The position numbers were made by a program, and so were the translations under genes. Below the pieces are notes generated by a model that worked only from the letters and a program-made list of their open reading frames with translations, made no database searches and had not been told where the DNA came from. Positions 20,659 through 30,624 of a stretch of DNA of 64,000 nt are shown here, piece by piece (within the stretch, counting starts at the first letter, position 1; each line of letters starts with the position of its first letter). Origin of the DNA: Mogibacterium sp. (GTDB lineage: Bacteria > Bacillota > Clostridia > Peptostreptococcales > Anaerovoracaceae); NCBI GenBank assembly GCA_017512365.1, contig JAFWGQ010000001.1:30863-94862 (forward strand). Reading direction: 5' to 3'.

Positions 20659-21696
20659 ATGGACAACAAAGGCAGCCGCAAAAACAAAAGGTCGGAGACA
20701 GGGCGAAAGAGGGCGTTCGCCGTTTTTGCGCTGATCCTTGTATGCTGTCTGTGCCTTGCTGCGGTGAAATACCGCGAAGGCAGAGACATGGCTGCTGATG
20801 ATACAGGAAAGCAGCAGAATGCTTCTGTCGGAGCCGGACCTGCGGTATCCGGCGGAGAGATCGGCGATACGGCGTCGCCGGACGCGGAGCATCTGCCTGA
20901 ATACGACGGCCGCCGCTATGTGACCGTGAACGGAAGCGTGCCTGATTTTCCTGACGAGGTCATCGAAAAGGCATCGCTTGTAAAGAACGGCGACAGATAT
21001 AAGACAGAAGGCAGTCTGCCGGGCAGGGTGGATCCGTCCGGACTTACTCCGTACGAGTACTACGGCAGCCTGGACGAGCTGGGCAGGTGCACATGCGCGT
21101 ACGGATGCCTCGGGGAGGAGACCATGCCTGAGAAGGGGCAGGAGAGAGGTGATATATCGTCCATACATCCGTCAGGCTGGGCAAAAGCCCAGAACTGGGA
21201 GCGCTGCCACCTGATAGCGTGGGCTCTTTCGGCCGAGAACGACAATCCTGAGAACCTCATCACCGGCACTCATTACCTGAATTACGAAGGCATGAGGCCT
21301 TTTGAGGAGGAAGTCGGGCATTACATATGGAACACTGGAAACCATGTCCTTTACATGGTGAAGCCGTGGTTCAGCGGTGACGAGCTCGTGGCGAGGGGCG
21401 TACAGATGACCGCCCGCTCAGTCGAGGACAACGGTGCAGGCGTATCCTTCAACGTATATTGCTTCAATGTGACGCCGAACGCTTCTGTAGATTACATGAC
21501 GGGCATCGTCACGACAGAAGAGCAGGCGCAGCAGGAGCCGAGGCTCTATGTGGTCAATAAAAGGTCGAAGGTGTTCCACTATCCGAGCTGCGAAGGCGCG
21601 CAGTCCATATCGCCTCATAACAGGGAGGAAGTCACCGCGACCAGAGTCGAGCTAACTTCCCGGGGGTACACGCCGTGCGGTTACTGCGAACCATGA
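20659..21696 (+). CDS. Membrane-anchored DNA/RNA non-specific endonuclease (EndA/NucM-like) with a C-terminal Ada-like zinc domain
   Basis: N-terminal TM anchor. Nuclease core WERCHLIAWALSAENDNPENLITGT. The C-terminal FHYPSCEG...GYTPCGYCEP matches the Cys4 pattern of the Ada N-terminal Zn site. Confidence 0.7.
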   Translation: MDNKGSRKNKRSETGRKRAFAVFALILVCCLCLAAVKYREGRDMAADDTGKQQNASVGAGPAVSGGEIGDTASPDAEHLPEYDGRRYVTVNGSVPDFPDEVIEKASLVKNGDRYKTEGSLPGRVDPSGLTPYEYYGSLDELGRCTCAYGCLGEETMPEKGQERGDISSIHPSGWAKAQNWERCHLIAWALSAENDNPENLITGTHYLNYEGMRPFEEEVGHYIWNTGNHVLYMVKPWFSGDELVARGVQMTARSVEDNGAGVSFNVYCFNVTPNASVDYMTGIVTTEEQAQQEPRLYVVNKRSKVFHYPSCEGAQSISPHNREEVTATRVELTSRGYTPCGYCEP

Positions 21697-21810: not shown

Positions 21811-24498
21811 ATGACAGAGACACAGCGGCGGCGCTACATAATCGAAAACTTCGAAAGAGCCATGTCCGAAGGCTGGCTCAAGGTCTGGTATCAGCCGGTC
21901 GTCAGAGGCTCCAACGGCAGGGTGTGCAGCGAGGAGGCTCTCTCAAGATGGGCGGAGCCCGGAAAAGACATCATCTATCCTGACGCCTTCGTCCCGGTGC
22001 TCGAGGAGGCCGGCCTGACAGGAAAGCTCGATCTTTACGTGCTTGACCGTGTCCTGGAGGACTTCGGGCGGCGCAGTGAAGCGGGGCTTTATATCGTTCC
22101 GGTCTCCATCAATCTGTCCAGGAAGGATTTTGAAAACTACGATATGCCGGAAGAGATCCGCAGAAGGGTGGACGGAGCCGGCGTCGACAGGAAGAAGATC
22201 GCTCTGGAGATCACAGAGACCGCCATGGGAAGCGATTTCGATCAGATGAGCACGCAGGTAAAACGTCTGCGGGAGATGGGATTCAGAGTCTGCATGGACG
22301 ATTTCGGCAGCGGATATTCATCGCTCGACTTTCTGCAGAAGACGGATGTAGATGCTCTCAAACTCGACCTGAACTTCATGCGCGAGTTCGAGACCAATGA
22401 GAAGACGAGGCTCATAGTCACACAGCTGGTCAGGATGATATCCTCGCTCGGCATGGATACTGTTGCCGAGGGAGTAGAGACCGAAGAGCAGTTCGAATTC
22501 CTCAGAGAGATCGGATGCACCAAGATGCAGGGATTCTGGTTCTGCGAGGCCGTCCCTCTAGAGGAGATCATTGCCCGCTACAGGGAAGGGCGCCAGATAG
22601 GCTTCGAGAATCCGGACGAGACCGAGTATTATGAAACTCTCGGCAGGATAAGCCTCTTCGATCTGGATGATACGGCTTCGGACGAACAGGCTCCTGAAGA
22701 CAGTTCTGCACTCCGGAGGTACTTTGCTTCGCTTCCTGTAGCCGTGCTCGAGTATAACGGTGAGAAGATCCGCATAGTCCGCTGCAACAGGAGCTACAAG
22801 GAATTCGTAAAAGAGGCGTTCGGCATCACGGGAACAGAAAGAAGCGATGACCATGCTCCTCAGCTCCATGAAAAAGGCGCCGAGATATTCGAACTCTTCG
22901 AGCGCTGCAGAGGCCTCGGGAGAAGGCTGCTGTTCGAAGAGCAGGTAAGCGACAGGATGAATATCAACGGCTTCATAAGGCATTCCGCGGACAATGAGGT
23001 CACGGGCTATTCCGCGTTCACGCTCGCCATTCTGAGCAGCAAGGACTTCGACGAGAGCTCGGGAGTTACTTTCGCCCGCGCCGCACGGGCCCTTTCATCC
23101 GACTATATCAATCTGTACTATGTGAACGATCAGACGGGTGAGTTCACGGAGTACAATCCGGACGCCTTGCGCAGCAATCTCTCCGTGGAAAGACGCGGGC
23201 ATGACTTTTTCAACACCAGCAGAAAGGATGCCGAAAAGGCCATATATCCTGATGACCGCGCCAAGTTCCTGAGCGAGTTCAGAAAGGAATATATCCTGGA
23301 GGTCCTTGAGCAGCAGGGAACATTCACGCTCTCGTACCGTCTGATGACCGACGGCGAGCCGATCTATGTCAACATGAAGGCTGTCAGGGTGGACGGCGAA
23401 CACATAGTGATCGGCGTCAACGATGTGGACGCGTACATGCGCCATAAGGAGGCTCTCGAAAGAGCGGAGCAGGAGAGCATAACCTACGCCAGGATCACGG
23501 CTCTTGCCGGCAATTACCTGGCCATATACACGGTAGACCCTGTAAGCGAAGAATATATCGAATACAGCGCGACAAAGGAGATCGAGGACTTCGGGATCGC
23601 CAAGAAAGGAACGGACTTCTTCGGCGAGATGATCAGGAACGGCAGAGACGCGGTGTTTGGCGAAGATTTCGAGGGCTATCAGGTGATCTGCACGAAAGAG
23701 AACATCCTGCGCGATATCGAGCAGACGGGACTCTTCGAATTCAACTACCGGCTGATGATGGGGGGCGAGCCTGTCCATGTCTCGCTCAGGGCAGCAAGAG
23801 TCGAAGAAAAAGACGGGCCGCGCATCATAGTCGGCATCAGCAATATCCAGGAAAGGATGGCGCGAAGCCAGCAATACGAAACAGCCCTGAAAGAAGCGAG
23901 GGCTATGATAACCACCGACGGGCTTACCGGGGTGAAGAACAAGGGCGCCTACATGAATGCCGAAGCCGAGCTGAACGAGCAGATCAGAGCCGGAGCGGAT
24001 CCGGAGTTCGCTGTAGTCGTGGCCGACCTGAACGGACTCAAGGATATAAACGACCAGCACGGGCACCAGACCGGAGACAATTTCCTCAAGGCGGGATGCA
24101 GGGCCATATGCGACATTTTCGATCACAGTCCGGTGTTCAGGGTAGGCGGCGACGAATTCGCGATCATCGCGAGGGGCCGCGACTACGAGCATATCGATGA
24201 GCTGATGGAAAAGATGGCCGCTCACAATGAGTGGTGCATAGAGGCGAGAAAATCGGAAGGAGAGGGATACTCCGCGGCAAAGCGTATGACTATAGCTGCC
24301 GGAGCCCACGACCGCGACAGCAGGGTCGAAAGGGACTACACGGATGCCAGCGCCGGTGCGATATATGACTTTGACCCTGAGGATGTGGTCATAGCTGCCG
24401 GCATGGCGCGCTTCGAAGGGGACCCTGATGTCTCTGCGGTGTTCGACCGGGCGGATCTGGCGATGTTCGAGAACAAGAAGGAACTCAAGAGCAGATGA
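21811..24498 (+). CDS. c-di-GMP turnover protein: N-terminal EAL phosphodiesterase, two PAS-like sensor repeats, C-terminal GGDEF cyclase
   Basis: EAL motifs: EEALSRW, EITE, DDFGSGYSSL, KLD, EGVETEEQ, QGFWF. GGDEF motifs: DLNGLKDINDQHGHQTGDN and RVGGDEFAII. Confidence 0.9.
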   Translation: MTETQRRRYIIENFERAMSEGWLKVWYQPVVRGSNGRVCSEEALSRWAEPGKDIIYPDAFVPVLEEAGLTGKLDLYVLDRVLEDFGRRSEAGLYIVPVSINLSRKDFENYDMPEEIRRRVDGAGVDRKKIALEITETAMGSDFDQMSTQVKRLREMGFRVCMDDFGSGYSSLDFLQKTDVDALKLDLNFMREFETNEKTRLIVTQLVRMISSLGMDTVAEGVETEEQFEFLREIGCTKMQGFWFCEAVPLEEIIARYREGRQIGFENPDETEYYETLGRISLFDLDDTASDEQAPEDSSALRRYFASLPVAVLEYNGEKIRIVRCNRSYKEFVKEAFGITGTERSDDHAPQLHEKGAEIFELFERCRGLGRRLLFEEQVSDRMNINGFIRHSADNEVTGYSAFTLAILSSKDFDESSGVTFARAARALSSDYINLYYVNDQTGEFTEYNPDALRSNLSVERRGHDFFNTSRKDAEKAIYPDDRAKFLSEFRKEYILEVLEQQGTFTLSYRLMTDGEPIYVNMKAVRVDGEHIVIGVNDVDAYMRHKEALERAEQESITYARITALAGNYLAIYTVDPVSEEYIEYSATKEIEDFGIAKKGTDFFGEMIRNGRDAVFGEDFEGYQVICTKENILRDIEQTGLFEFNYRLMMGGEPVHVSLRAARVEEKDGPRIIVGISNIQERMARSQQYETALKEARAMITTDGLTGVKNKGAYMNAEAELNEQIRAGADPEFAVVVADLNGLKDINDQHGHQTGDNFLKAGCRAICDIFDHSPVFRVGGDEFAIIARGRDYEHIDELMEKMAAHNEWCIEARKSEGEGYSAAKRMTIAAGAHDRDSRVERDYTDASAGAIYDFDPEDVVIAAGMARFEGDPDVSAVFDRADLAMFENKKELKSR

Positions 24499-24561
24499 AT
24501 CAGGCGGAAGAATTGACCTGTGGCTGACTGCGGGCATCGGCCTGAGGCCTGATACCCCGGG

Positions 24562-24584
24562 GCGACGCATGCGTCAGTTTTTTC
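24562..24584 (+). terminator. Rho-independent terminator after the EAL-GGDEF gene
   Basis: Palindrome GACGCATGCGTC followed by AGTTTTTT. Confidence 0.7.
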
Positions 24585-24627
24585 AAGGAAACATGTTTTA
24601 AGTTCAGTTTTTACGCTGATTGTAGTA

Positions 24628-25893
24628 ATGTTAAGTTCTATGGGAGACAATATCAGAGAAAATGAAGAATATGTAAGCGTCTTTGACAGAATGCTGGACA
24701 TGGACAAAAGAAGGGCCTTTATAGAAAGGAAAAGGTCCTCATACAGCGTTTCGGAAGACGAGGCGGCTCAGCTCGAGGCCTACATATTGTCCGACAGGTG
24801 CACTGATGAGATACAGAGGCTCAGGGAAGGAGACTTCTTCTTCAAACCGCCCGGACTCACGATGCTCCGCAAGAAGAATTCGACAAGGAAGCGCAGGATC
24901 TACAGATTTCGCGACAACGAGAGCATGCTGCTCAAGCTCATGGCTTTCGTGATGCATGATTTCGATTATCTGTTCTCGGATTCGCTGTATTCCTTCCGTC
25001 TGGGAAAGCACATATCCGGCATATTCAATACCGTAAACAAAAATGGCTACAATAAGGACTGCTGGGTCCTCAAGACAGACATACACAGCTACGGCGACAA
25101 CGTGGATCCGGAAATACTCAGCGTACAGATGAGAGAACTGCTCGCGGAGAAGGACCCTTCCCTGTTCGCATTTCTGGAAAAGCTGGTCTGCCGGGGCGAG
25201 TACTGGTTCCGCGGCAATCTGGTGCAGGGCCCGACCGGAGCTCTGAGCGGATGCGCTCTCACCAATTTCTTCGAGAACGTATATCTGCTGGACGTCGATG
25301 ACGTGGTCAGACAGAACAGCGTATATTACTGCAGATTCGCCGATGACATCGCGGTGTTCACCGAATCAAAGGCGCAGGCTGAGGTGGTCAGGGAATTCCT
25401 CAGAAAGACCTTCGAGGAAAGAGGTCTTGAGTTCAATGAAGCAAAGACCGATATATGCGCGCCGCGCGAGGGCTTCGATCTGCTCGGGTTCAGGCTCCAG
25501 GACGGCGAGTACGATATCGCCGAGAACTCCCTTGAGAAGATAGAGTGGAAACTGAACCACTATGCGGAAAAGCTGGTGAGAAAGGAGCGCAGGGGCGAAC
25601 TCACAAGAGAGGAAGCCATGCAGCGCATGATCGACAGGGTCGACAGGTACTTCTTCGGAGTCGTCAGAGAGGAAAGAGAGCTGAACTGGGTAGACTGGGC
25701 TTTCAGAATCCTTACAAGGACAGACAGTCTCAAGAGGATAGACGCATGGTCGCAGGAGTGCATAAGGTTCGTCGGCAGCGGCGGCAAGCGCACAGGCGCG
25801 AAATACCGTGTCCGTTACAAGGACATGCGGCGCATGGGTTACCGCACGCTTGTGCACGCGTATTACCACGGATTCGAAAGAAGAACTGAATAA
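24628..25893 (+). CDS. Stand-alone reverse transcriptase (RNA-directed DNA polymerase), class undetermined
   Basis: Seven RT blocks are readable:
- Blocks 1/2: RKRRIYRFRDNESMLLKLMAFVM.
- Block 2a: SLYSFRLGKH.
- Block 3: VLKTDIHSYGDNV.
- Block 4: GALSGCALTNFFENVYLLDVDD.
- Block 5: YYCRFADDIAVF.
- Block 6: GLEFNEAKTDI.
- Block 7: FDLLGFRL.
These are followed by a helical tail of about 110 aa. The start is uncertain (24628 or 24640), and neither has a clear Shine-Dalgarno. Confidence 0.85.
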   Translation: MLSSMGDNIRENEEYVSVFDRMLDMDKRRAFIERKRSSYSVSEDEAAQLEAYILSDRCTDEIQRLREGDFFFKPPGLTMLRKKNSTRKRRIYRFRDNESMLLKLMAFVMHDFDYLFSDSLYSFRLGKHISGIFNTVNKNGYNKDCWVLKTDIHSYGDNVDPEILSVQMRELLAEKDPSLFAFLEKLVCRGEYWFRGNLVQGPTGALSGCALTNFFENVYLLDVDDVVRQNSVYYCRFADDIAVFTESKAQAEVVREFLRKTFEERGLEFNEAKTDICAPREGFDLLGFRLQDGEYDIAENSLEKIEWKLNHYAEKLVRKERRGELTREEAMQRMIDRVDRYFFGVVREERELNWVDWAFRILTRTDSLKRIDAWSQECIRFVGSGGKRTGAKYRVRYKDMRRMGYRTLVHAYYHGFERRTE

Positions 25894-25899
25894 GATATA

Positions 25900-26051
25900 C
25901 CGGCGTGAGCCGGGATATGGGCGGGTGCGCTTGAAAAAGCGCGTCTGCAAGAGACGGTTGAGGCGGCCATGAAAAGGCTATGCAGACGGCCGCCGCCGGG
26001 ACTGTTTTGACAGCCGAGGCCTTGAATGGATTCCCGCCCATATCCGGACCC
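25900..26051 (+). repeat. Tandem structured repeat, copy 1 (candidate RT-associated ncRNA unit)
   Basis: 152 nt starting 7 nt after the RT stop codon. Predicted helices:
- CCGGC-GUGA-GCCGG hairpin.
- 13-bp closing stem GGAUAUGGGCGGG / CCCGCCCAUAUCC.
- GCGCUU-GAAA-AAGCGC hairpin.
- GUCUGCA / UGCAGAC helix.
- GGCGGCC / GGCCGCC complementarity. Confidence 0.8.
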
Positions 26052-26084
26052 ACGAAGGAACAGAAGGAAAGAACAAAAAAAGAT

Positions 26085-26236
26085 CCGGCGTGAGCCGGGA
26101 TATGGGCGGGTGCGCTTGAAAAAGCGCGTCTGCATGAGACAGTTGAGGCGGCCTTGAAAAGGCTATGCAGACGGCCGCCGCCGGGACTGTTTTGACGGCC
26201 GCAGCCTTGAATGGACCCCCGCCCATATCCGGGCCC
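26085..26236 (+). repeat. Tandem structured repeat, copy 2
   Basis: Offset by exactly 185 nt from copy 1. My manual alignment gives 9 substitutions and no indels over 152 nt. The copies are separated by the purine-rich spacer ACGAAGGAACAGAAGGAAAGAACAAAAAAAGAT. Copy 2 ends 39 nt before the ABC exporter start codon. Confidence 0.8.
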
Positions 26237-26274
26237 GCATCGCAGTGGGTCGAATAAGCGTACAGGGAAAGCAG

Positions 26275-28458
26275 ATGAAGGTACCAGTAGTCATACAGAC
26301 ACATCCGGGAGAGAATTCCATCGCGGCGATCGCCACGATACTCTCTTACTATGGCAAGGTAGTCCCGCTTTCCGAAATGAGGAAGTACAATATCACCTCG
26401 AGAGGCGGTTCCACTCCGGAACAGATGAAGGACATGGCATCGCGCTATGACCTCGAGACGGAGATAGTGGAAGCGGATATGGAACAGCTCGCCGGCATGA
26501 CTATGCCTGTGGTCGCGAAGTGGAAGCACAAGTACTGGGTGATAGTTAAGAAGATAGGAAGAGGCGTGGTATATCTGTCGGATCCGGCCAAAGGCGAGTA
26601 TGAGATGTCGATCGACGGATTCAGCAGCAAATTCGACGGAGCCGTACTCGTGATGAAGCCGGCCGAAGGCTTCAAAAGGGGAGGCAAAAGGCCGTCCCTT
26701 TACGGCCTCATCATGAAGCGTCTGGACGGCGTTCAGCGGCAGATGGTCATGCTGGGCATCCTCAACGCCATGGCTGTGGGTCTCAGTCTGCTGATGGTCA
26801 GGTCCACGCGTATGATGCTCGATGTGGCGGGCAATGAGAAAGGAAAAGAGGACTGGGTGCAGTCGCTGCTGTCAGGAGGCTTTGACGACCGCTCTACGTA
26901 CAGGTTCCTCGTGGTCTCGATGTGCGTCATACTGGCTGCCATGACCGCGGTCAACGTGATCAAGACTCTTCTTATATACAGGACAGCCTATTCAGTAGCG
27001 GCGCGCTCGGGAGCAGGACTGTTCAGGAAGATCCTGATGCAGCCCATGGTATTCTTCGAGCAGTACAGATCAGGCGAACTGATACAGCGAATGGAGGACA
27101 ACTCGAAGCTCGATCTGTCTCTGGTGAGGACCATAGTTCCGCGCCTGCTCGATTTCGTGATGACCATCATATATTTCGTGCTCATGCTCAGCTACAACTG
27201 GAAAGTGGCGCTTATCTGCATTCTGGTTGAGATCGTTTACATGGTCGTATCGCTTCGCATGAAGAACCGCATCACGATGCAGGCCAGGAGCAACGCCGTC
27301 AGTACCGGCATGATGAACACATCGATACTGAACGGGCTGGACACCATAGATACCATCAAGTCCGGAGGTCTCGAGAGGATGTTCTTTTCGGACTGGAACA
27401 GATCCCAGATCGAATTCGATGAGGCGCGTGAGGGCGGCATAAGCATCACTGCCATCACGGGAGCGATCGACAGCATGCATTCGCTCTTCTCGCAGGCCGC
27501 ACTGCTCTTCGCCGGAGCCTACTTCATGATACAGGGACAGTTTACCTTCGGTATAATGGCAGCTCTGCAGACTGTGCTCGGGAACTTCAGGAACAGCTTC
27601 TCGAACTGCATCTCCATGACCAACAATCTGCAGAAGACGAGAACCGAGATAGAACGCATAGAAGACATAAGAGAAAGAGACAGCCTGCCTGAAAAACATC
27701 TGGCCGCTGATTCGGAGCCGGATAAGCTCAGGGGGCGTCTTGATGTGTCGCATCTGTGCTACAGATACCAGGAGGGCGAAGCTCCTGCCCTTGATGATGT
27801 GAGCTTCAGCGCCAAACCGGGCGAGCTTATCGCCGTGGTCGGATCCTCCGGATGCGGCAAGAGCACTCTCCTGAAGTGCCTGCTCTCACTTTACGAACCG
27901 GAGAGCGGCAATATATGGTACGACGGACACACAAGAGACGAGATCCCGGATGTCGTGTTCCGTTCATCGGTCACGGCAGTCGACCAGGAGTGCGTCGTAT
28001 TCGAGGACAGCATAGCGAACAACCTGACGATGTGGGACCCGACGGTCGAGGAGTACGAGATGATACTCGCCGCCCGTGACGCCCACATACACGAGAGGAT
28101 CATCAGGGACAGAGATGGGTATTACGCCGGGATGTACGAGAACGGCAGGAACTTTTCCGGCGGAGAGCTGCAGAGGCTTGAGCTCGCCAGGGCTCTGTCC
28201 ACGGAATCCACCATACTGCTGCTCGATGAATTCACATCGGCGCTCGACGCTGTTACCGAGGAAGCTGTATTCAAGTCCATAAGACTGAAGGCTACCACAT
28301 GCATAATAGTCGCTCACAGGCTGTCGACGGTGGCCTCGTGCGACCACATACTCGTAATGGACAAGGGCAGGATCGTGCAGAGGGGAACGCACGAAGAACT
28401 GTATAACACCGAAGGCATTTACAGAGATCTTCTGGAAGTGCCTGGGGAGAAGATCTGA
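26275..28458 (+). CDS. ABC exporter (permease + ATPase) with an N-terminal C39-peptidase-like domain lacking the catalytic Cys
   Basis: The N-terminal VVIQTHPGENSIAAIATILSYYG ... HKYWVIV ... LSDPAKG resembles bacteriocin-exporter C39 domains, but no Cys occurs in roughly the first 215 residues. Six-TM core, Walker A GSSGCGKST, signature FSGGELQRL, Walker B LLLDEF. ATG 26275 was preferred over 26245. Confidence 0.85.
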   Translation: MKVPVVIQTHPGENSIAAIATILSYYGKVVPLSEMRKYNITSRGGSTPEQMKDMASRYDLETEIVEADMEQLAGMTMPVVAKWKHKYWVIVKKIGRGVVYLSDPAKGEYEMSIDGFSSKFDGAVLVMKPAEGFKRGGKRPSLYGLIMKRLDGVQRQMVMLGILNAMAVGLSLLMVRSTRMMLDVAGNEKGKEDWVQSLLSGGFDDRSTYRFLVVSMCVILAAMTAVNVIKTLLIYRTAYSVAARSGAGLFRKILMQPMVFFEQYRSGELIQRMEDNSKLDLSLVRTIVPRLLDFVMTIIYFVLMLSYNWKVALICILVEIVYMVVSLRMKNRITMQARSNAVSTGMMNTSILNGLDTIDTIKSGGLERMFFSDWNRSQIEFDEAREGGISITAITGAIDSMHSLFSQAALLFAGAYFMIQGQFTFGIMAALQTVLGNFRNSFSNCISMTNNLQKTRTEIERIEDIRERDSLPEKHLAADSEPDKLRGRLDVSHLCYRYQEGEAPALDDVSFSAKPGELIAVVGSSGCGKSTLLKCLLSLYEPESGNIWYDGHTRDEIPDVVFRSSVTAVDQECVVFEDSIANNLTMWDPTVEEYEMILAARDAHIHERIIRDRDGYYAGMYENGRNFSGGELQRLELARALSTESTILLLDEFTSALDAVTEEAVFKSIRLKATTCIIVAHRLSTVASCDHILVMDKGRIVQRGTHEELYNTEGIYRDLLEVPGEKI

Positions 28459-30624
28459 ATGGGCATATATACCGAGGCGCTCAAAAACCGCGAAAGAAAC
28501 GACCTTGAGCTCGAGCGCAACGCCGAGCTGAGGATGATGAACCGTCTGGACAGAGATCCGAAATTCAATGATGCAGACGGAGCGTTCTTTGCGTTGAATC
28601 ATATCCTCGGCAAATTCGGCCTGTCGGCGAACGAGGTGCACGGCTACTCCGGCACTCAGGAGATGCTGGACCTCGCCCTCGATCCGCTGGCCATAATATA
28701 TGATATCGTTGACCTCAGCGATACGGAATGGACAAAGCGCACCGAGTACATACTGGGATTCATGGAGGACGGCAGGGCCGTCGTCCTGAGCCCTGCGGTC
28801 AGAGGATACACATACAGATGCCTGACTGACGGTTCGCATGGATGGGTGAGGAAAGACACCCCTCTGCAGCAGTTCGCATACGCGATACAGAGACCTCTCG
28901 ACAGAAGGGTCAGGAACCTGGTCACTCTCGCGATATATACACTGCATCTCGTTTCGGCAAGAGACATAATCGCGATAGGCGGAGCGACACTGGCGATCTC
29001 TCTGCTCGGACTCATCACGCCGAAGATGAACCAGTACGTGCTCCGCGAGATCGTGCCCATGGGAACCGACGGCTACACTCTTCTGTTCAGGGCTTTCGGT
29101 CTCTTCCTCTCTGCCGGCATGGTCAAAGGCGCCATCCAGGCCGTCAAGAGCGTGAGTCTGGGCAAGATGCGCATAAGGATATCCTCGGAGGTGCAGTCCG
29201 CGGTCATGACAAAGGTACTGACGCTGCCGCAGTCTTTCTTTACTCAGGTATCCACGGGCAAGCTCTCAAAACAGATATCGAACGCCAGATTCCTGAGCGA
29301 ACAGATAATAAGCTTCGTTCTCGGAGCTTCTCTGACAGCGGTGTTCTCGCTTGTATACATACCTCAGATGGCCGGGTTTTCAAGGGTCCTTCTGATACCC
29401 GCGGTCGTCATACTGATCATCAGGAGCGTCTACACACTGATGGCCGGATACCTCTTTGCCGACAACGAAAGGAGGAGGCAGGAGGCCGAGATGGACGAGA
29501 GGGCCTTCCTCTTCTCCACGTTCAAGGGCATACAGAGGATAAAGGAGAGCGGAGCCGAAAAGAGGATATTCTCGAGATGGACATCGAAGTACAGCGCCGT
29601 GCTCGACTGCGACCTGAACATGCCTGTAGCGCTTTCGCTCGAGGACGTAGTGCTCAGCTTCCTGAGCTCGCTCGGTACTGTGATACTCCTCTCGCTCATC
29701 ATTCCTGCCGGAATAGACAAGGCGGACTATATCGCGTTCACGAGCGCGTTCGGCCTGATCTCGGCGGCAGTCACGGAACTGATGGACGCGCAGAGAAAGC
29801 TCTTCCTCATGAGACCCATGATGGAGCAGCTCAGAGGACTGTTCGAGTCCGAACCGGAGGATGCCCCTGAAAAGAGCGTAGTCAGAAACATCAGAGGCAG
29901 CATAAAGGTAGAGAATGTCAGCTTCGCGTACGACGAAGGCAGGTTCGGATGCCTCAACGGAGTCTCGCTGGATATCGCCGCGGGAGAGAAGGTCGCGATC
30001 GTAGGCGAGAGCGGCTGCGGAAAGAGCACTCTTTTAAAGATCATACTCGGAGCGCTCAAGCCTGACGAGGGAGCCGTGCTCATAGACGGCATGCCTCTCG
30101 AATCTCTGAATCTGAGATCCTACAGAAGGCACATCGGAGCTGTTTTCCAGTTCAGCAAGGTGATGCCGGGAACGATATATTCCAATATCGCTTTCTGTCC
30201 GCATCCGGTCAGCCTCGAAGAGGCGAAGGCCGCGGCCGAAAAGGCCGACATAGCTGAGACCATAGAAAGGCTGCCTCTCGGCTACGAGACAGAGATATCC
30301 GACTCGAACACCGGAGGCTTCTCCGGCGGTCAGAGACAGAGGCTTCTGCTTGCCAGGGCCTTCGCTTCGAAGCCGGACATCATGATACTCGACGAGGCGA
30401 CGTCCGCACTCGACAACATTTCCCAGAACAAGGTGCTCGATTCGGTATATAAGGAAAACTGCACTGTAGTGATGGTCGCGCACAGGCTGTCGACGGTCAG
30501 AGACTGCGACAGGATAGTCCTGATAAAGGAAGGCCGCATAGCCGAACAGGGCACCTACGACGACCTCATGAAGCTTCGCGGAGAATTCTATGAGCTCATG
30601 CGCAGGCAGTCCGGAACGCACTGA
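28459..30624 (+). CDS. ABC exporter (permease + ATPase), partner subunit with a non-peptidase N-terminal domain
   Basis: TGAATG junction with the upstream gene. Walker A GESGCGKST, signature FSGGQRQRL, Walker B IMILDEATSALD, H-loop VAHRLST. The N-terminal domain of about 150 aa has no C39 motifs. Confidence 0.85.
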   Translation: MGIYTEALKNRERNDLELERNAELRMMNRLDRDPKFNDADGAFFALNHILGKFGLSANEVHGYSGTQEMLDLALDPLAIIYDIVDLSDTEWTKRTEYILGFMEDGRAVVLSPAVRGYTYRCLTDGSHGWVRKDTPLQQFAYAIQRPLDRRVRNLVTLAIYTLHLVSARDIIAIGGATLAISLLGLITPKMNQYVLREIVPMGTDGYTLLFRAFGLFLSAGMVKGAIQAVKSVSLGKMRIRISSEVQSAVMTKVLTLPQSFFTQVSTGKLSKQISNARFLSEQIISFVLGASLTAVFSLVYIPQMAGFSRVLLIPAVVILIIRSVYTLMAGYLFADNERRRQEAEMDERAFLFSTFKGIQRIKESGAEKRIFSRWTSKYSAVLDCDLNMPVALSLEDVVLSFLSSLGTVILLSLIIPAGIDKADYIAFTSAFGLISAAVTELMDAQRKLFLMRPMMEQLRGLFESEPEDAPEKSVVRNIRGSIKVENVSFAYDEGRFGCLNGVSLDIAAGEKVAIVGESGCGKSTLLKIILGALKPDEGAVLIDGMPLESLNLRSYRRHIGAVFQFSKVMPGTIYSNIAFCPHPVSLEEAKAAAEKADIAETIERLPLGYETEISDSNTGGFSGGQRQRLLLARAFASKPDIMILDEATSALDNISQNKVLDSVYKENCTVVMVAHRLSTVRDCDRIVLIKEGRIAEQGTYDDLMKLRGEFYELMRRQSGTH

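Follow-up and report, generated by a model that had tools for sequence, protein, structure and literature searches.

All Class 2 UG/Abi reverse transcriptase (RT) systems studied so far (DRT2, DRT9 and DRT10) template complementary DNA (cDNA) from an adjacent non-coding RNA (ncRNA), the template being a short single-stranded loop framed by two helices, and in DRT9 and DRT10 synthesis is primed from a serine or tyrosine at the RT C-terminus (PMC12632851; bioRxiv 10.64898/2026.06.29.735271). UG26 is a Class 2 UG/Abi group of 35 members, with an inconclusive association with defense and no ncRNA described (Mestre et al., 2022, PMC9226505). RT-5 belongs to a set of 19 motifs associated with RTs, and its function is unknown (Weinberg et al., 2017, PMC5737381). 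Here, a 64,000-nucleotide (nt) stretch of a Mogibacterium sp. genome (contig JAFWGQ010000001.1, positions 30,863 to 94,862; hereafter, the window) was analyzed, in which a UG26 RT gene is followed by two tandem direct repeats and then by the two genes of an ATP-binding cassette (ABC) exporter, ABC1 and ABC2. The best explanation of the locus as a whole is that the repeats are copies of a pseudoknotted ncRNA, the dedicated partner of the adjacent UG26 RT, and a probability of roughly 0.78 was assigned to this reading. The RT gene and the repeat array were placed as follows (window coordinates).

24628-25893, + strand: RT gene, UG26 group of Class 2 UG/Abi, 421 amino acids (Pfam RVT_1, PADLOC RT_UG26)
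25900-26051, + strand: ncRNA unit 1 (repeat searches, covariance model R1, sub-threshold Rfam RT-5)
25913-26045, + strand: core of unit 1, with an extended closing stem at roughly 25904-26054
26052-26084, + strand: inter-unit spacer, purine-rich, with an A7 run; no conservation
26085-26236, + strand: ncRNA unit 2 (repeat searches, covariance model R1, sub-threshold Rfam RT-5)
26098-26110 with 26218-26230, + strand: closing stem P1 of unit 2 (same elements as unit 1, +185 nt)
26128-26134 with 26166-26172, + strand: pseudoknot helix P3 of unit 2

Fold of the repeat unit and its comparative support

The two direct repeats (25900-26051 and 26085-26236, 152 nt each) were recovered by a repeat search and by Tandem Repeats Finder (94% identical, period 185 nt, no indels between copies), and a scripted count gave exactly 9 substitutions; the unit length, offset, substitution count and lack of indels given in an earlier note, made from the sequence alone, were all reproduced by these means. 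Between the RT stop at 25893 and the start of ABC1 at 26275 are 381 nt, which the array occupies. The 13-base-pair (bp) closing helix of that note (GGAUAUGGGCGGG/CCCGCCCAUAUCC) is also present, and its 13-mer (GGATATGGGCGGG) occurs exactly four times in the window, as both arms of each unit. Each unit folded better than shuffled controls (z = -4.0 and -4.5), and the reverse strand also folded well (z = -6.6). As both strands are stable, folding energy cannot separate an RNA from a DNA palindrome, and the comparison with relatives decides. The elements of unit 1 are listed below with the variation found in relatives.

25913-25925 (GGAUAUGGGCGGG) with 26033-26045 (CCCGCCCAUAUCC), + strand: P1, closing stem; compensatory changes in 10 of 13 pairs, 95% of cells paired
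25927-25942, + strand: P2, hairpin GCGCUU-GAAA-AAGCGC; compensatory changes in 5 of 6 pairs, loop sequence varies
25943-25949 (GUCUGCA) with 25981-25987 (UGCAGAC), + strand: P3, pseudoknot; 98.7% of cells paired, 3 pairs with double changes
25951-25967 (GAGACGGUU..GGCGGC) with 25992-26008, + strand: P4, long helix, 5' strand; double changes in 12 of 15 pairs
25992-26008 (GCCGCC..GACUGUUUU), + strand: P4, 3' strand
25968-25975 (CAUGAAAA), + strand: A-rich asymmetric 8-nt bulge between P4 and P5; candidate template loop
25976-25979 with 25988-25991 (GGCU-AUGCAGAC-GGCC), + strand: P5, hairpin whose 8-nt loop holds the P3 3' strand; 100% paired
26009-26032, + strand: junction GAC, small variable hairpin P6 and conserved junction UUGAAUGGAUU; second candidate template loop

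In the conserved fold, P3 comprises 6-7 bp between the 8-nt loop of P5 and the strand just upstream of P4. An A.A.GG pattern is conserved just before P5, and UU.GA and AAUG are conserved in the P6/P1 junction region, while the sequence of the P6 hairpin, read by eye, differs from lineage to lineage. P1 runs into a U-tract in most lineages, like an intrinsic terminator.

Relatives were gathered through the RT, whose homologues formed 65 clusters among 5.8 billion proteins; 29 genuine UG26-type loci came from scans (L001-L020 from genomes, L031-L039 from metagenomes), and L111-L119 were added by single-protein look-ups. Units were compared in a plain MAFFT alignment, blind to structure (27 units), and in a model-fitted alignment (34 units), which leans towards the structure; the structure has 45 pairs. 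RNAalifold on the plain alignment found P1, P2 and P3, with compensatory changes in 16 of the 24 pairs concerned, and with the P3 strands masked every homologue, folded alone, gave the same P4-bulge-P5 architecture. Across the 45 pairs, 85.8% of cells were paired in the structure-blind alignment vs. 43-53% when partners were slid by 1-3 columns; 25 pairs had changed on both sides, and none of 500 shuffles reached any observed measure. The corresponding values for the model-fitted alignment were 89.2% vs. 39-49%, with double changes in 32 of the 45 pairs, so that the compensatory changes for which the earlier note had asked the helices to be checked are abundant. Among P3 pairs, the changes UA to CG, UA to AU and CG to UA each occur in four sequences and AU to GC in two, and the helix is wholly rewritten as GUUUCAG:CUGAAAC in both tandem copies of a distant locus (L258). 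P5 also covaries (UGCG/CGCA in L016). Since P5 and P3 both covary, the simplest reading is that they coexist, like a fully paired kissing loop, which we infer on geometric grounds.

Much of the fold drawn in the earlier note survived this comparison. Its GCGCUU-GAAA-AAGCGC hairpin and GUCUGCA/UGCAGAC helix are present and supported by covariation, and the crossing GGCGGCC/GGCCGCC complementarity, for which a pseudoknot or an alternative fold had been allowed, proved to be part of a true pseudoknot rather than of alternative folds, as both crossing helices covary (GGCGGC/GCCGCC lies in P4). Two other elements did not hold. The 5' hairpin CCGGC-GUGA-GCCGG exists only in the clade of the window, where its stem has no compensatory change; instead, the closing stem is lengthened outwards by pairing between the 3' half of this hairpin and the bases that follow P1, which covary (GC to AU, UA to CG), and other lineages have a closing duplex of 18-26 bp with no CCGGC-type 5' hairpin. 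The two GNRA tetraloops are not conserved, the P2 loop being GAAA, UUAU, UUCG, ACAUA or others in relatives. Taken with the recurrence beside RT genes described below, the compensatory base changes bear out the proposal of a functional RNA rather than coding sequence next to the RT, and it is very likely, judging from sequence comparison, that the repeats are a functional structured ncRNA partnered with that enzyme.

The reverse transcriptase and the loci that carry the RNA

The window RT matched the PADLOC model RT_UG26 over residues 17-415 (E = 5.1e-100). The next named groups were UG4 (1e-27) and UG17, which is DRT10 (4.8e-25, residues 66-397), and the retron-type, Drt2, Drt3a and Drt9 models gave E values of around 1e-11 to 1e-15 (about 1e-11 for retron-type). 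The NCBIfam retron, Drt2, Drt3a, Drt4 and Drt5 models all scored far under their cut-offs. The catalytic F-A-D-D motif is intact, with D239 and D240 invariant in 32 homologues, and the AlphaFold model (predicted local distance difference test score, pLDDT, 88.6) has complete fingers, palm and thumb. In Foldseek comparisons of this model, the template modeling (TM) score was best for a group II intron RT (0.73), followed by G2L4 (0.57-0.69), DRT9 (0.56-0.62), DRT2 (0.55), the RT of diversity-generating retroelements (DGRs; 0.51-0.56) and retron RTs (0.40-0.45). The enzyme is a UG26 member of the Class 2 UG/Abi RTs and not a retron RT. Pfam gave no matches in its N- and C-terminal extensions. 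Conserved tyrosines near the C-terminus (KYRVRY...GYRTLVHAYYHG; also given as KYRVRY...HAYYHG) precede a variable tail and, by analogy with the primed Class 2 systems, are candidate protein-priming residues.

Of the rival explanations, the one that survives best, itself very improbable, holds that the units are retron msr-msd RNAs, in which a1/a2 end pairing places the branching G for multicopy single-stranded DNA. It would account for the long terminal duplex that unites both ends of each unit, for invariant G residues at the inner end of P1 (GG.GG-U-G) and for the adjacent RT gene, homologues of which some databases label 'retron-type RT'. However, the RT falls outside the retron clade (retron_St85_RT, 43.5 bits vs. 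a cut-off of 235), with UG26 favored by about 90 orders of magnitude in PADLOC, and the retron TM scores of 0.40-0.45 compare with 0.73 for the group II intron RT and 0.60-0.62 for DRT9. The RNA is downstream of the RT here and varies in position among relatives (upstream, even on the opposite strand), a long msd-like template hairpin is missing, and the conserved core is a pseudoknot. Rfam returned no retron family at gathering score in the whole-window scan; with the 29 loci included, no family at all reached its gathering threshold at or near the motif, and a permissive scan of 25700-26400 (up to E = 10) gave only RT-5 and anti-hemB. The retron comparison drawn earlier from the a1/a2-like end pairing is not supported, the RT not being of the retron clade and end pairing not being specific to retrons (SL1 of DRT10; bioRxiv 10.64898/2026.06.29.735271).

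Most UG26-type loci come from rumen and gut Clostridia (Mogibacterium/Anaerovoracaceae, Lachnospiraceae, Oribacterium and Oscillospiraceae) and from Coriobacteriia. The closest two (L001 and L002) share the gene order of the window, namely TelA, endonuclease, EAL-GGDEF, RT, RNA array, ABC1 and ABC2. The RNA motif adjoins RT homologues in about 30 loci, which is nearly all related loci with enough flanking sequence, and an nhmmer profile of the two window copies placed a unit directly after the RT stop wherever the RT was at least 55% identical. A covariance model (R1) found the unit in loci outside its training, namely L111 (two tandem copies), L013, L016, L010, L011, L116 and L118, downstream of the RT in L013, L116 and L118 and upstream on the same strand in L016. 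The RNA is upstream and on the opposite strand in L010/L114 and L011 only, and on the RT's strand in every other detected locus. Real matches to R1 scored 45-156 bits on the RNA strand and at most 24 bits on the reverse strand of the same sites (unit 1, 155.7 bits on + vs. 20.7 on -; unit 2, 149.4 bits). No further copies were found by R1 in the window or in 338 kilobases (kb) of related loci, so the many dispersed copies unrelated to RT genes, which the earlier note had named as the finding that would speak against it, were absent there. Across Clostridia and Coriobacteriia the RNA is co-inherited with the RT, and the locus combines a Class 2 UG/Abi RT with an adjacent conserved structured ncRNA, as in systems of the DRT2, DRT9 and DRT10 type.

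Phage-borne copies were considered and rejected: R1 gave no matches in 798 kb of phage DNA preselected for the pseudoknot pattern, and the 96 viral-contig loci returned by two pattern scans were chance, none of them matching the model. One RT locus is uninformative as a case of an RT lacking the RNA, because its contig is an inverted duplicate of itself around 4974, with the RT present twice with identical tblastn statistics (L014:3697-6250); this duplication is probably an assembly artefact, and it accounts for the missing partner RNA in that locus. In L010:1513-1633 (= L114:1549-1711) a long near-perfect palindrome stands right after the RT stop, and its microRNA model match, equal on both strands, is a hairpin artefact. 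Unrelated known RNAs occur in the flanks of some loci, none near the RT (L009:11351-11514, L038:5359-5473, L039:12682-12792 and L018:634-898): a Clostridiales-1 RNA, an FMN riboswitch, a drum RNA and a sub-threshold T-box (84.3 bits vs. a gathering score of 93).

Tandem arrays were found in L111, in L258 and in the clade of the window, where the loci have 2, 2, 2 and at least 2 units and L001 has 3 plus a truncated fourth; they arose in at least three RT lineages. Within the 133-nt core, 7 of the 8 differences between the window copies are at unpaired bases and the eighth turns a G-U into an A-U pair; with about 68% of core bases paired, the binomial chance of such a pattern is roughly 0.002 by our own arithmetic. 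The copies of L002 differ at 10 unpaired positions and at 5 that keep pairing, and no pair is broken. Because the differences spare the helices, as had been remarked of the window copies in the earlier note, both copies appear to be under selection for the fold. The purine-rich A7 spacer, also singled out there, fared less well: start-to-start spacing differs among close relatives (204 nt in L002, 172 nt in L031). On the minus strand, at 26085-26098 and 25900-25913, the clade-specific hairpin CCGGCUCACGCCGG and, after it, AUCUUUUUUU, complementary to the A7 spacer, together score as terminator-like, which could end antisense transcription or be a coincidence.

A U-run follows only the last unit of the arrays in L001, L002 and L031, with a TATAAT-like element between it and ABC1, which suggests that an array is transcribed as one RNA; the last unit of the window lacks both the U-run terminator and the TATAAT-like element, and transcription would there continue into ABC1. 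A sigma-70 promoter scan of 24300-26500 gave nothing better than chance near the units. The truncated fourth copy of L001 (L001:7783-7880; P1 5' strand, P2, P3 5' strand and P4 5' strand) lies downstream of the U-run terminator and TATAAT-like element of the third copy and is fused to the ribosome-binding site and start of ABC1.

A selfish repeat that left the arrays behind as it spread, either a palindrome of the repetitive extragenic palindrome (REP) or miniature inverted-repeat transposable element (MITE) type or a non-autonomous retroelement that the RT copies, is highly unlikely. Its terminal inverted repeats, the good folding of both strands, a copy number of 1 to 3 plus a fragment among close relatives and the independent arrays in three lineages would suit such an element. 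Yet there are only two copies in 64 kb and related loci carry copies solely beside the RT, on which ground a REP/MITE was rejected; R1 is strongly strand-asymmetric, the covariation includes the pseudoknot, and divergence between copies is constrained by the fold. Spacer lengths vary, and ordinary unequal recombination could equally explain the change in copy number.

Linkage to an ABC exporter

The exporter genes follow the array on the same strand.

26275-28458, + strand: ABC1 (Pfam, NCBIfam TIGR03796)
28459-30624, + strand: ABC2 (Pfam, NCBIfam TIGR03797)

ABC1 has Peptidase_C39-like, ABC_membrane and ABC_tran domains (Pfam), and ABC2 is a second permease/ATPase subunit with an N-terminal region of roughly 170 amino acids in which Pfam gave no matches. 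The best NCBIfam models were those of the NHLP-type bacteriocin exporter pair (TIGR03796 for ABC1, 582 bits vs. a cut-off of 853; TIGR03797 for ABC2, 494 vs. 709). When ABC1 was aligned with LahT150 (6mpz), ENS fell opposite ECG, and the catalytic Cys is replaced by Asn in 18 of 18 RT-linked ABC1 sequences; the C39 catalytic His is likewise replaced in all 18, by Tyr in the window and by Tyr, Asn, Ser or Cys elsewhere. By relatives and architecture, the predicted exporter is of the type that exports ribosomally synthesized and post-translationally modified peptides (RiPPs).

Of the 29 loci, 20 share with the window an ABC1/ABC2 pair that adjoins the RT and its RNA, and most of the others are on contigs too short to tell; ABC2 is always paired with ABC1. 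At least five gene orders occur: the ABC pair may follow the RT, on its strand or convergently, or precede it, on its strand or divergently, and in a fifth order the RNA stands before the RT. The RT and its RNA often share one operon with the exporter, overlaps of start and stop codons are seen in L005, L011, L012, L016 and L017, and independent gene calls with Pfam annotation confirm the RT-ABC arrangement in L116-L119. We found no report of an RT-ABC exporter linkage in the searchable literature. From this gene linkage we lean towards a functional coupling of the RT-RNA pair to the ABC pair.

The same orders bear on a further rival, as unlikely as the selfish repeat, which makes the RNA a cis-regulatory element (leader or attenuator) of the ABC operon and treats its nearness to the RT as secondary. 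As a leader would, the array directly precedes ABC1, on its strand, in the window, L001, L002, L031 and L004, and P1 with its U-run looks terminator-like in many loci. Elsewhere, however, the RNA follows the end of a convergent ABC2 (L003, L018, L034, L036, L039 and L116), is separated by the RT from a divergent ABC pair (L007, L009, L035 and L118), closes the operon at its 3' end (L005 and L013) or precedes the RT (L012, L016, L017 and L019), and one locus (L006) has RNA and RT with no ABC genes. The RNA stays by the RT while its position relative to ABC1 shifts, so it is the partner of the RT and not a leader of the ABC operon, a role that synteny already contradicts.

A search from the exporter side returned six ABC1 homologues (58-63% identity). 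Two are in class II lanthipeptide clusters, ordered LanA (with a ...VNGG leader), LanM, ABC1 and ABC2 (L256 and L257), three share their locus with a second-subclade RT whose identity to the window RT is 31-36% (L258, L260 and L261), and one has neither (L259). By tblastn, the window and the RT loci held no LanM and none of the LanA/Nif11 precursors of L256-L258, except for LanM-like genes in L010/L114/L115; other precursor types were not searched for. Several details of individual loci were recorded. The exporters of L256:7001-9181 and L257:4235-6415 also have Asn at the Cys position (GENA) despite classical ...VNGG LanA leaders, and leader removal in clusters of this type may not be performed by the transporter. 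Nif11-leader precursor genes lie about 5 kb away in L258, and LanM-like and radical-SAM genes stand beside the RT in L114. A nucleotidyltransferase gene of the HIGH_NTase1 family lies between ABC2 and RT at L260:4560-5678, with a radical SAM gene after the RT, and in L261 the order is RT-ABC1-ABC2, with RT and ABC1 only 63 nt apart. The window clade has a DNA/RNA non-specific endonuclease gene upstream of the RT (window 20659-21696, Pfam Endonuclea_NS_2), and a 37%-identical homologue stands immediately upstream of the RT in the distant locus L018 (5011-5889). This gene may be an accessory of the RT locus; some UG26 RTs are accompanied by a different (Vsr-like) endonuclease (Mestre et al., 2022, PMC9226505).

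Disguised coding sequence, whether tandem precursor-peptide genes, an endless-open reading frame (ORF) template as in DRT2 or a DGR template repeat, is the least probable alternative, since, although sister clusters have one or two LanA genes and LanM beside the exporter and DRT2, a Class 2 relative, makes a gene from its ncRNA, the units have no conserved start codon or frame (the AUG of AUGCAGAC is UUG, UGG or CGG in relatives), and their indels and compensatory pair changes suit RNA rather than protein. A small conserved ORF within the unit was ruled out by the same variation of the AUG, and an endless ORF by the length enclosed by P1 (0, 1 or 2 mod 3) and by stops on circular reading in nearly all homologues. 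A template repeat/variable repeat pair of a DGR was also rejected, as the differences between copies (A>U, G>A, A>U, A>G, A>C, G>A, U>C, U>C and A>G) are not confined to adenine and both copies are intergenic.

Proposed mechanism and comparison with known systems

By analogy with DRT2, DRT9 and DRT10, the RT would bind the RNA, which would serve as a scaffold, and might copy into cDNA a short unpaired stretch with a helix on each side. This stretch would be one of two, the A-rich P4/P5 bulge or the P6/P1 junction, the latter corresponding in position to the DRT10 template loop next to the end-pairing stem. Copying would probably be iterative and possibly primed by the RT protein itself. The array would probably be transcribed with the RT gene and, in the window, be read through into the ABC genes; the RT-RNA pair would then work with the two-gene ABC exporter, as its linkage suggests, the exporter acting as effector or as exporter of the product. 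We regard the role of the RNA as RT template for cDNA as an even proposition.

Several observations weigh against parts of this account. The match to RT-5 is sub-threshold in every locus (best 37 bits vs. 45.7), and the anti-phage role of UG26 is rated inconclusive (PMC9226505). The template role is argued wholly from analogy: a search of the P6/P1 junction for A-B-A' repeats showed no enrichment and no direct repeats longer than shuffled sequence gives, the A-rich bulge falls short of a strict homopolymer, and the U-run pairs with GAGA/GAAA within P4 in every homologue. One locus, the only one of its kind, has RT and RNA with no ABC pair within 1.6 kb upstream or 4 kb downstream (L006), and near the second-subclade RTs linked to the same exporter no RNA copy was detectable (L260 and L261). 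From the junction repeats and the paired U-run, respectively, a telomerase- or DRT10-like A-B-A' template in the P6/P1 junction is not supported, and a DRT9-like free poly-U template is ruled out.

A bolder reading, which we consider speculative and rather unlikely, would make the UG26 RT, the pseudoknotted RNA, ABC1 and ABC2 one four-part machine that couples reverse transcription to export. The RT-RNA pair would replace LanA-LanM, and the non-cleaving C39-like exporter would recognize and move, or be triggered by, the RT product, for example a protein-linked repetitive cDNA. If so, this would be the first RT system with an ABC exporter as effector or outlet, and it need not be anti-phage.

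UG26 had no known RNA, partner or function, and the partner RNA, here in two maintained copies, is previously undescribed. In the searchable literature, which gave nothing relevant besides Mestre et al. (2022), the full fold of the RNA, its tie to RT-5, the recurrent arrays and the coupling to a protease-dead RiPP-type exporter were not found; the combination of a Class 2 RT with an ncRNA is of a known kind. The Class 2 mechanisms (gene synthesis in DRT2, poly-dA in DRT9 and telomerase-like repeats in DRT10) each depended on first finding the partner RNA. For the UG26 RNA the boundaries, a fold with a covarying pseudoknot and a working covariance model are now defined, and the orphan Rfam family RT-5 is tied to an RT lineage. 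Given the recurrent arrays, one may ask whether a single complex uses two or more RNA modules.

Among known RNAs, the nearest is RT-5 (RF03026), matched at 25939-26034 in unit 1 (19.8 bits) and 26124-26219 in unit 2 (15.6 bits) and, in relatives, in L018 (37.0 bits), L011 (25.4) and L006 (25.2), all against a threshold of 45.7; the alignments span all 104 model positions in these five units, and under permissive settings no other family came up repeatedly at the motif. RT-5 and the window RNA have in common an upstream GCGC-YCUGC, a long helix, an A-rich stretch, a hairpin GGCU-UUGCAGRC-RGCC and then a small variable hairpin; in both, the UGCAGRC loop complements the upstream YCUGC, and both adjoin an RT gene. 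Closing stem P1 and the 5' half of P2, both present in the window RNA, have no counterpart in the RT-5 model. We read the window RNA as a divergent, more complete relative of RT-5 that is not a member by the Rfam criterion; the searchable literature yielded no publication connecting RT-5 with UG26, an exporter or tandem arrays.

DRT10 (UG17) is the closest characterized RT group in the PADLOC scan. It also has an adjacent multi-helix ncRNA with paired 5' and 3' ends (SL1; bioRxiv 10.64898/2026.06.29.735271) and a membrane-protein partner gene, which is SLATT in DRT10 and a two-gene ABC exporter here (PMC12632851; bioRxiv 10.64898/2026.04.29.721553). The window RNA has a pseudoknot, a word that does not occur in the main texts of the DRT10 structure preprint (bioRxiv 10.64898/2026.06.29.735271) and the SbcB/DRT10 preprint. 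DRT2 (UG2) and DRT9 (UG28) are likewise Class 2 UG/Abi RTs with a dedicated neighboring template ncRNA, and their RT structures were significant structural matches; DRT2 differs in its endless ORF on circular reading, of which the window RNA has none, and DRT9 in its poly-U tract, whereas the U-run of the window RNA is paired within P4 and no free conserved poly-U is present. Neither DRT2 nor DRT9 systems have an exporter partner. Retron msr-msd RNAs share terminal inverted repeats that pair the RNA ends and an adjacent RT gene, and differ in RT clade, gene order and RNA core. On the exporter side, the nearest systems are the LanA-LanM-LanT/ABC lanthipeptide clusters, whose exporters are 58-60% identical to ABC1/ABC2 and have the same C39-like, transmembrane and ATPase architecture; where these sister clusters have one or two LanA genes and LanM at the exporter's side, the RT loci have an RT and an ncRNA in that position.

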